A DNA stretch of 64,000 bases from Escherichia coli (GTDB taxonomy: Bacteria > Pseudomonadota > Gammaproteobacteria > Enterobacterales > Enterobacteriaceae): NCBI RefSeq assembly GCF_050920415.1, contig NZ_CP169309.1; one strand, 5' to 3'. Below are positions 45,001 through 48,000 of the stretch, in pieces; the first letter of the stretch is position 1, and each line of letters opens with the position of its first letter. The position numbers are program-made.

Positions 45001-48000
45001 ATTTTCTGGCGACAGCAAAGGTGCTGAAATTTCCGGAAGTGCAGATGCATGAAATCCTGAGTGACTTTGCCAGAATGATTCCGGCAGCACTGGATAACGT
45101 GAAGACTTCATTACCGACAGATTTTCCGGAGAACGTGGTGACGGCAGTTGAAACCAATGTGTTGAGGTTGCACCGTCGCTTAAGCTGAGAATACGGTATT
45201 AAGTAAGATATGGGGTTTGGCCGTTGTTAATGAGCAGGACAATCATGACCGCCAACGACTGGATTCTCCCTTGGTTTATGTTGGTGCGCATAATGTATAT
45301 TATGTTAAATAGCCTATGATGGTAAACAACTTCATATCTCTCCATTGCCTCTCACGAAAGGAACTGGACACACTGATCGAGCACGAATTACAACTGATGC
45401 TGGCTGAAGGCTTTGACAAGTCCCCTATTTCCGCCAAGGCTCTGCATATTCGGCTCAAGGCAAAAGGTATCGTTAACGGTGGTTTAAGTACGCTGAGCAG
45501 CCTTGAGCGAAAACGCCTAATTGCTGCCTATGTTGATCAGCAACTTGGCCCGTTGAATCTACGCCCAAAAGAAAAACAGCAATACGTCAACCGCAAAACC
45601 CGTCAGGCCTTGCTGGCCAGAAACCAGCAGTTGCAGGCGGAAGTCAGTGAACTGCAAGACCAACTGGCGCAGAATACCCTATCGTTGATAGAAATTGTCA
45701 AAGCGGTAAAAATCAATACGGTTATTCCGGTGGAAAGTCTGTTGCCAAACATGTAATTCGGGAATTACACAAGTCGTCATAATGCTGGTTATAATTTTCG
45801 GCAAAGGGCATGGACGATTTCTTTCCGTCATTCTGTATATTGCTTACCTTCCCAAATTTCTCCAACCGTTAGTTGGAGAAATTAGATGAGTCGTAAATCA
45901 TGAATAAACCCCTTGCTCTATTCGAAAAATGAGCATGGCAACTTTCAACACCCCCTCTTCTGAGTCCATTATCTCAGAGGGCGTTTTCCACTGTAATGCT
46001 CTGTTTGGTTCATTGCACCAGTTTAATGCTGCACTTTCGTTACCTTCAAAAAGATCAATAGCCTTTTGAAGAACGTCATTTTTTGTCAGCATGTTTTACA
46101 CCTGAAGACGTTTTGAGTGCTTCGATAAGACTACTTCGCTCTTCCTCTGTCATCCGGGATATGAGCAATGCAAGTTCTGCTGTTGTCTGATCATCACAAA
46201 AAAAGTAGTTCAACGGCACGTTTAACTCTGCCGCCATCCGTCGAATCGTATCAATATCGGGGACATGGCGCCCTTTCTCATAATGATTCATACGACTGCT
46301 AGCCGATGCGGGATCAAAGCCAACATGAAGAATTGATAATTGCCGTGCCGAGCAGAGAAAATGAATTCCGGAAACTTTCTCTTAAGCAAGATAAAAGACA
46401 TATTAAGATAAATGAAAAAATAAAAACACTGATTAGGATTGGTAATAAAAATATTACAATAAGGCAATGAATTTTAAAAAGGATTTGAAGTTTAATACAG
46501 TCATGAAAAAGAGAGGGCAAAGCCGACCCCGCCCTCTCCCTTCATGCACTGATAAGCCTCACTAATAGTGAGTGTTAGCAGCGCGTACCACTGTATGCTA
46601 GACCTGAAAAATATAATCTCAGTCAGTCCCAGATGCAACCTTTAACACTTCAACGCAACAAATTAAACAACGAATAGCCACAAACGTGTAGACAGTGCAC
46701 TGATACGGATAAAAGTAACGCTCCTGAATTGCTCAATCAATGATATATACCCTGTTTTACTGACATATCTGACAGCGGGTGGATTTCCTTCAATTATTGA
46801 TATAACACCATACGCACTACATCTGTCTCCACCAGAATATGAGGTGAAATTGTTGCGCACCGGTTAATCCGGGTGTACTGGTCAAACTGTTTTTACGGTG
46901 CGCCTGTTTTATAGCCTTCAGTTGCGCAATGCGTCGACTTCGCATGGCTTTCCTCATGACTGCCGCTTTACCATTGCGCAATTCGCCGATGTAGTCGGTG
47001 CCCCCCGGAAAATCAAACGGTTCTGGTTGTTCTCTGTACTGCTTCAGGGCGTATAGCCCGATACCTCAGCAGACGGGTTTTCCCCGGAGCGAGGCCTCTG
47101 GGGTTCATAATTAATCGTACAGCCAAAGTACCAAGCGTTCGGCCGGCTGGGCGGCCGGCTGGGCGGCCGGCTGGGCTTGCTGGTCAGTTTGTTCCAACAC
47201 ACATTAAGCATCTCCAGTCCGCTGGGCAGGCGGTCCGGCAGGCTGGTCAGCTGGTTATTACTCACATCAAGCACCTTCAGCCTGACGGGCAGCACCGGCA
47301 GATGGATCAGCTGGTTATTACTCACATTAAGCGTCCTCATATAGCCGGGCAGCTCCGGCAGGCTGCTCATGAGGTTAAAACGCACATCAAGCGTCACCAG
47401 CCCGGCGGGCAGCGCCGGCAGGCCGGACAGCTGATTATTACTCACATCAAGCATCACCAACCCGGCGGGCAGGACCGGCAGGCTGCACAGCCGGTTTCTA
47501 CTCACATCAAGCTTCTCCAGACTGGCGGGCAGCACCGGCAGGCTGCACAGCTGGTTTTTACACACATAAAGATGCTTCAGCCCGGCGGGCAGGACCGGCA
47601 GGCTGTCCAGCAAGTTTCTTCTCACATCAAGCTCCTCCAGCCCGGTGGGCAGCTCCAGCCCGGTGGACCTGAAGAGATTGTTTCCACCCACATTAAGGTG
47701 CTTCAGCCCGGCGGGCAGGACAGGCAGGCTGCACAGCTGGTTTCTACTCACATCAAGCTTCTTCAGCCCGGCGGGCAGGACCGGCAGGCTGTCCAGCAAG
47801 TTTCTTCTCACATAAAGCTCCTCCAGCCCGGTGGGCAGGACCGGCAGGCTGCACAGCTGGTTTCCACTCACATCAAGCTTCTCAAGCCCGGCGGGCAGCT
47901 CCGGCAGGCTGGTCAGCATCAGATTTGCCAGTTCTAGTTCCAGTGCCGAAGCTCTATTGCATGCTCTATTGTATATATATGCCTTCACCCTACTAAGAGC

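Follow-up and report, generated by a model that had tools for sequence, protein, structure and literature searches.

GInt islands are defined by a trio of tyrosine integrases together with one small protein encoded in the order ginABCD (2017, PMC5385486), and they have been noted as carriers of defence systems in Escherichia coli (PMC10121019). Three further described systems bear on the locus reported here: VspR, a published repressor of the island-borne VSP-1 CBASS genes in Vibrio cholerae; the control (C) proteins of restriction-modification (R-M) systems together with CapH, whose partner is the protease CapP; and the toxin-antitoxin modules RES-Xre, ParST, MbcTA and NatRT, in which a DUF2384 (Xre/MbcA/ParS) toxin-binding domain follows an N-terminal Xre-like helix-turn-helix (HTH) domain (PF20432). 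We analysed a stretch of 64,000 nucleotides (nt) from E. coli (GCF_050920415.1, contig NZ_CP169309.1; hereafter the window), in which a first-pass annotation had described two overlapping minus-strand open reading frames (ORFs) of HTH and DUF2384 type and proposed either a decayed toxin-antitoxin module or a regulator remnant of the islet. With a probability of about 80%, what survives at the locus is the 3′ part of a two-gene regulator operon belonging to a GInt that was inserted site-specifically about 120 nt past hipA and has since been disabled.

Around the islet, the gene order of the E. coli chromosome is lsr operon, autotransporter gene, hipBA, islet and ydeQRST fimbrial genes. K-12 represents the empty site, and the homology of the window to both K-12 and E. 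coli MB64 ends exactly at 45310. The left junction of the window (45310/45311) falls on the same nucleotide as in MB64, placing the GInt insertion about 120 nt beyond the hipA stop codon. In MB64 a repeat of about 10 nt, whose core is GTTAAAT, borders an insert of 15.4 kb on both sides; the chromosomal side of attL in the window (45299–45310, plus strand) reads ATTATGTTAAAT, and its core recurs at the right end of the intact MB64 island. Site-specific insertion with a direct repeat, relative to the empty site, is thus supported by K-12, by MB64 and by the identical left junction in the window. Intact copies occupy the same site in many other strains, and the exact islet of the window is present in 16 complete genomes (RefSeq).

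The intact islands read attL, ginA, ginB, ginC and ginD on the plus strand, followed on the minus strand by genes for a 64-aa DUF2384 protein and a 110-aa HTH protein, which overlap by 17 nt as in the window. Beyond the HTH gene lies a divergent gene for a VspR-like protein of about 186 aa and then anti-phage cargo that varies, with retron Ec78, ABC-3C, CBASS and type I R-M systems among it. Of the gin genes in these copies, two encode tyrosine integrases, one a protein of about 788 aa (GinC) and one a protein of about 144 aa (GinD). GinC (788 aa) gave no significant match in Pfam or PDB sequence searches and a weak match to a PHROG integrase (phrog_1, E 0.0012). The ginABCD operon is complete in seven of the related loci (L002, L005–L007, L009, L028 and L033), and an eighth (L029) has a damaged ginA. 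This four-gene module is a GInt module under the definition of PMC5385486: in the related intact islands, one 5′ operon encodes two proteins annotated as tyrosine integrases, a large third protein that resembles integrases but is annotated as hypothetical, and a small fourth one; the cargo of these islands begins directly after ginD; and they are inserted site-specifically between flanking repeats of about 10 nt, K-12 being empty. They depart from the published definition in the VspR-like/HTH/DUF2384 cassette directly past ginD, which that definition does not include. We also considered a GMT (Gamma-Mobile-Trio) island and rejected it, because only a faint GmtY match was obtained (E 0.036) and the gene set is unlike GmtYZX. 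The regulator cassette was found in 280 of 5,426 E. coli genomes, and the E. coli island also occurs on a plasmid (p99COLEC-1).

The copy in the window is a remnant of such an element and not a functional member. Its first 47 nt (45311–45357, plus strand) are the left terminal sequence of a GInt variant, recognised by motif comparison and fused to codon 4 of ginD. The motif (A/C)(A/T)(G/C)TTCAT(A/G), about 20 nt inside the junction, is common to the window and the left ends of four other island variants, and the left end of the window is closest to that of L006. No GinA, GinB or GinC was detected in the window (tblastn); ginA, ginB and ginC (about 5.4 kb) are deleted from this copy. What follows is a damaged ginD (45316–45782, plus strand; tblastn, and labelled 'frameshifted' by RefSeq in identical genomes), whose residues 4–132 are 98% identical to MB64 GinD, whose N-terminus has been exchanged for the left-end sequence of the island and which is frameshifted near its C-terminus. 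The convergent ORF of 146 aa (45316–45756) that had earlier been listed as unknown is therefore present on the plus strand as described and is this damaged ginD. RNA folding predicts a perfect 13-bp hairpin in the gap that separates the ginD remnant from the convergent DUF2384 ORF (45855–45883; −18.7 kcal/mol, z −4.3, with none of 200 shuffles as stable), which may act as a bidirectional terminator. A second deletion joins the HTH gene at 46325/46326 to the C-terminal 48 codons of the divergent VspR-like gene (46324–46470, plus strand; tblastn to residues 139–186, E 6e-18), with 1 nt of microhomology at the junction. About 590 bp are missing here relative to MB64, and with them HTH codons 1–28, both promoters and most of the VspR-like gene. 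Lacking ginABC and with ginD damaged, the element cannot move any more.

Both minus-strand ORFs of the first-pass annotation are present (45898–46092 and 46076–46291), in different frames and overlapping by 17 nt. The upstream ORF (71 aa) is a truncated Xre-type HTH gene, as had been suggested: it begins at Met40 (46291) and corresponds to residues 40–110 of the 110-aa Xre-type protein that is intact in MB64. Homology in frame, without a start codon, extends upstream to residue 29 at 46325, so that the 5′-truncated repressor gene comprises codons 29–110 (46076–46325, minus strand; alignment to L002 6721–7053). The intact homologue matches HTH_19 (E 1.7e-8) and HTH_3 (E 5e-8), the latter spanning residues 11–69; a complete HTH is not present in the window fragment, and the 71-aa ORF by itself gave only a sub-threshold RstR match. 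Searched against PADLOC, the intact protein matched Control_protein nearly end to end (E 5.5e-26) and capH (E 2e-8). Selection on the HTH gene indicates strong constraint (omega 0.05–0.15), including in variants with a disrupted DUF2384 region. Like R-M control proteins and CapH, the intact HTH protein is located at a divergent promoter region that borders defence cargo; it differs from them in having neither CapP nor, because the cargo varies between islands, a dedicated R-M system attached, and in the window it is reduced to residues 29–110. Since its start codon, codons 1–28 and promoter have been lost, the 71-aa ORF is a dead gene fragment, and for this ORF the proposal of a regulator remnant of the islet proved right.

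The window holds a second fragment of the HTH family (48895–49073, minus strand; blastn and tblastn), consisting of codons 1–49 (49041–48895) and 32 nt upstream, which RefSeq annotates as 'helix-turn-helix ... missing C-terminus'. A gene for a leucine-rich repeat (LRR) protein directly adjoins it downstream. The two HTH fragments share 69 nt at 91% identity. One HTH gene split by a single insertion was considered and rejected, as the shared stretch, being only 91% identical, is not a target duplication. The fragments thus represent two alleles, and the islet is a mosaic of at least two decayed copies. In E. coli H7, the cargo of the first island is followed by another pair of gin integrase genes (L005 16127–18540), indicating that GInts stack in tandem at the hipA site, in agreement with the two-allele mosaic of the window.

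The second ORF of the operon is an intact gene for a stand-alone 64-aa DUF2384 protein (45898–46092, minus strand), hereafter the mini-gene. The DUF2384 likeness noticed in the first pass held: the ORF covers the whole of Pfam Xre_MbcA_ParS_C (PF09722; model positions 2–51 of 51, E 1.2e-10). Models of full-length antitoxins matched below their cut-offs, NCBIfam Xre_ParS_antitoxin over its C-terminal half (E 1.8e-14; 53.8 bits against a cut-off of 90) and TIGR02293 at 38.8 against 57, whereas the canonical relative P0152 passes both. RefSeq names the identical sequence WP_000956368.1 'MbcA/ParS/Xre antitoxin family protein'. An AlphaFold2 (AF2) model built on 16 sequences reached a pLDDT of 94.7, and its top 13 PDB matches were all toxin-bound DUF2384 antitoxins (TMq 0.68–0.82), namely P. 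putida Xre, VPA0769, ParS, NatR and MbcA; the model superposes on all six solved antitoxins of this type in complex with their toxins (9R35, 6GW6, 8GUG, 6D0H, 8QNQ and 6FKG) with an rmsd of about 1.1–3.4 Å. Every residue that is invariant in an alignment with canonical antitoxins is retained.

The mini-gene occupies the second position in the HTH operon, and an AGGTG Shine-Dalgarno sequence of its own lies 6 nt ahead of the ATG. When the E. coli type is compared with a diverged type (L011–L013), the frame, the start codon and the 17-nt overlap are all kept at a synonymous divergence (dS) of 0.9–1.3, with omega 0.15–0.2. Three further island variants of E. coli have stops and frameshifts in the DUF2384 region, an even sample of 60 E. 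coli records contained just 14 in which the gene is annotated, and truncated forms are numerous in the protein database. The mini-gene was under selection at one time (omega about 0.2) and yet has decayed in most E. coli copies; retention of frame and overlap over a dS of about 1, taken with this decay, makes it an ancestral but dispensable accessory of the HTH operon. In the window the 64-aa ORF is intact and its native promoter is lost. Upstream of the remnant on the minus strand there is no sigma-70-like site, and a terminator-like site is found at 46530–46514.

The third member of the cassette, the E. coli VspR-like protein, had no match in our local Pfam library. This 186-aa protein is homologous (E 2e-28) to a Pectobacterium protein with Pfam domains VspR_N and VspR_C. 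The likeness to VspR therefore lies in the homology of the gene divergent from the HTH gene to proteins with both domains; the window differs in keeping the last 48 codons only. GInts with the complete VspR-like/HTH/mini-DUF2384 unit occur in E. coli, on the chromosome and on a plasmid, and in Pectobacterium, Enterobacter and Klebsiella, and other contigs have the unit beside a transposase; our scan of the genome collection used a profile of the mini-DUF2384 family only. In E. whittamii the DUF2384 gene is present and ginABCD is kept, with no HTH or VspR-like match. Conversely, a Tn7-like element of V. cholerae and a recombinase island of Serratia have the HTH and VspR-like pair beside defence cargo with no DUF2384 gene. 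In the literature we found no direct description of this cassette, of VspR together with Xre in mobile elements, or of orphan DUF2384 proteins. The GInt of Pectobacterium brasiliense contains a second orphan DUF2384 gene directly past its VspR-like gene (L008 4668–4991; 107 aa, a nearly full ParS-like antitoxin), with no RES toxin nearby.

The first-pass annotation had found no RES-type or ADP-ribosyltransferase (ART) toxin gene beside the two ORFs, and this was borne out: tblastn detected no RES homologue in the 64-kb window, and RefSeq annotates neither RES nor ART within about 20 kb in the identical region. The RES query used here does pick up RES genes at 37–40% identity next to canonical relatives (L034–L036; Eremiobacterota), so the negative result is meaningful for the window and for about ten related islands, in which tblastn likewise found no RES homologue. 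L019 carries a RES gene (Pfam E 9e-31). If the locus were a decayed type II RES-Xre (or ParST/MbcTA) module that lost its toxin gene at this site, the related genomes should reveal an intact antitoxin with an adjacent toxin. Instead, every intact two-gene relative inspected has the same toxin-less layout, in E. coli MB64, S171-1 and p99COLEC-1, Pectobacterium, two Enterobacter species, Klebsiella grimontii, E. whittamii and metagenomic contigs. In these relatives the convergent gene, ginD or a transposase gene, lies only 30–116 nt from the DUF2384 stop (141 nt separate the 64-aa ORF from the convergent gene in the window), which leaves no room for a toxin gene at about ten independent loci, and wherever they have the HTH gene the mini-gene follows it. 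What speaks for a lost toxin is the domain itself, unquestionably the toxin-binding domain of an antitoxin, and its closest full-length relatives (53–56% identity), canonical antitoxins with a RES gene immediately downstream. The 64-aa ORF shares with the C-domains of RES-Xre, ParST, MbcTA and NatRT antitoxins this identity, the full PF09722 domain and the predicted fold, but it differs from these systems in lacking the PF20432 N-domain and in being the second gene of an operon under an unrelated HTH_3/HTH_19-type regulator, in a mobile island, with no RES or ART gene beside it here or in the related islands inspected. With no RES remnant in the window either, we regard a decayed toxin-antitoxin module as largely refuted and barely credible; on our reading the 64-aa ORF was at no time accompanied by a toxin gene here. 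Almost as improbable is that the two ORFs form one HTH-DUF2384 fusion gene, read through a +1 frameshift or transcriptional slippage, as the first-pass annotation had implied with a single frameshifted Xre-DUF2384 antitoxin. The attraction of a fusion is that its domain order would mimic canonical antitoxins and that the overlap holds a conserved A6 run (GAC AAA AAA TGA) ending at the UGA stop, with the second ORF in the +1 frame. The run is dual-coding (KK/KN), which by itself explains its conservation, and the mini-ORF has its own ATG and AGGTG Shine-Dalgarno sequence. A relative of the L024 type keeps both ORFs with another overlap and no long A run, and the overlapping two-ORF layout is kept over a dS of about 1. 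Used as a query, the frameshift-corrected fusion returned HTH-only proteins of 94–140 aa throughout the best 120 of 543 matches, and the fusion was dropped; no fused protein was seen among those HTH homologues (best 120 of the 543) or among 330 relatives of the DUF2384 protein.

Under the preferred reading of a disabled GInt regulator operon, the HTH protein of a live island would repress the divergent promoter region between the HTH and VspR-like genes and so set how far the cassette and the cargo next to it are expressed, the pair forming a putative regulatory switch at the border of mobility genes and cargo. The mini-protein would be translated from the HTH mRNA through the 17-nt overlap. 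As a complete toxin-binding domain without a DNA-binding domain, it most likely binds a protein partner encoded elsewhere, the most probable candidate being an NAD+-consuming toxin of RES/ART fold supplied in trans by another element; the fold evidence is the reason for favouring this partner. Such an orphan neutraliser might be useful only in some hosts, which would explain its conservation in some lineages and its decay in most E. coli copies. In the window the mini-protein probably does nothing. A serious rival, which we consider possible though clearly less likely, is that the mini-protein is a co-regulator or sensor subunit whose binding partner is one of the two repressors, HTH or VspR-like (it could be an anti-repressor, for instance), with no toxin involved. 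Its translational coupling to the HTH gene wherever that gene is present would suit this role, as would the 107-aa orphan DUF2384 directly past the VspR-like gene in Pectobacterium and the unrelated 65–67-aa DUF2384 proteins that stand without RES beside a SMODS and S_4TM pair or a T5orf172 gene. Against a co-regulator, the islands of Vibrio and Serratia and most E. coli copies have HTH and VspR-like pairs that work without the mini-gene, and all solved DUF2384 domains are toxin binders. We think it unlikely that the 64-aa ORF is instead a relic without present function in every island, derived from a captured part of an Xre-RES antitoxin gene. Pseudogenisation in three of the E. coli variants examined, missing annotation in about three-quarters of the sampled records, the many truncated database forms and an omega of about 1–2 between E. 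coli and Pectobacterium all agree with neutrality; against it, the 64-codon frame, start and overlap are retained at dS 0.9–1.3 with omega 0.15–0.2, all family-invariant residues are kept, and the gene is present in five or more genera and in mobile elements of two kinds.

Several points weigh against the neutraliser and, more broadly, against the disabled-operon reading. The functions proposed for the HTH protein and the mini-protein are drawn from homology and context. Other stand-alone DUF2384 proteins next to CBASS-like genes also lack RES, and a toxin-less DUF2384 in that position is no less compatible with a regulatory role than with a neutralising one. With omega at about 1–2 between E. 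coli and Pectobacterium, and with most E. coli copies being pseudogenes, the mini-gene may already lack a function across the Enterobacterales as a whole. A search of the window with the right-hand attB flank of K-12 did not reveal the right end (attR) of the island. Finally, the 64-aa ORF could be expressed in the window strain by read-through from the upstream LRR gene.

Two toxin-less settings of unrelated stand-alone DUF2384 proteins (65–67 aa) were observed outside the cassette: a family between a DUF7661 gene and a CBASS-like SMODS + S_4TM pair (L038–L040; 3001–3198 in L038), and a gene past a T5orf172 gene (L037 2472–2675). Taking the GInt HTH/VspR-like cassette, its transposase-borne version and the families beside SMODS + S_4TM genes as three settings, we tentatively raise the idea, which we would not yet favour, that stand-alone DUF2384 proteins of 60–70 aa are a recurrent toxin-less accessory of defence-island regulatory cassettes, acting as in-trans neutralisers of RES/ART NADase toxins that rival elements carry, or as sensor or anti-repressor subunits. 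If true, either role would extend DUF2384 beyond classical toxin-antitoxin pairs.

For the window itself the consequences are small, as the island is a disabled mobile element: the finding is real but ordinary, a pseudogene fragment and an orphan domain gene in a dead GInt. The annotation is corrected in that the 146-aa unknown ORF is ginD and the HTH ORF a pseudogene fragment, and the DUF2384 ORF is not to be counted as evidence of a toxin-antitoxin system. The one mildly novel feature is a stand-alone DUF2384 gene that is conserved, lacks a toxin and is coupled to a defence-island regulator; its intact ORF is already named in RefSeq. A three-gene cassette (VspR-like, control-protein-like HTH and mini-DUF2384) recurs at the border of mobility genes and defence cargo in several kinds of mobile element, and its conservation points to a shared, unstudied control of island-borne immunity. 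An antitoxin domain kept without any toxin also offers a small testable case of domain re-use or anti-addiction.

Two genes beyond the remnant, for the LRR protein and for an ankyrin-repeat protein, look like eukaryote-directed effector cargo rather than anti-phage cargo. The LRR gene (47044–48651, minus strand) stands in place of the 3′ half of the gene of the second HTH fragment and encodes a 535-aa protein similar to the LRR part of the type III effectors SspH2 (E 1e-58) and SlrP (E 8e-51), without a NEL ubiquitin-ligase domain and with TSK repeated six times near the N-terminus and PSRP three times near the C-terminus. On the other side, at the position of the divergent VspR-like gene, the second HTH fragment adjoins a gene (49344–51308, plus strand) for a 654-aa protein that RefSeq names an ankyrin-repeat protein and that has no NCBIfam match. 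Between the ankyrin gene and fimA, RefSeq annotates an HTH pseudogene, an IS481 transposase and alpha/beta-hydrolase fragments (51195–51533 and about 51340–52300); this HTH pseudogene fragment is unrelated to the 110-aa family (tblastn). On the chromosomal side of the junction, the hipA allele of the window carries a TGA in place of CGA at codon 435 (45186–45188), making HipA six residues shorter than in K-12: the protein ends in …RLHRRLS* in the window and in …RLHGRLSREYGSK* in K-12, and RefSeq lists a HipA of 434 aa in an identical genome.

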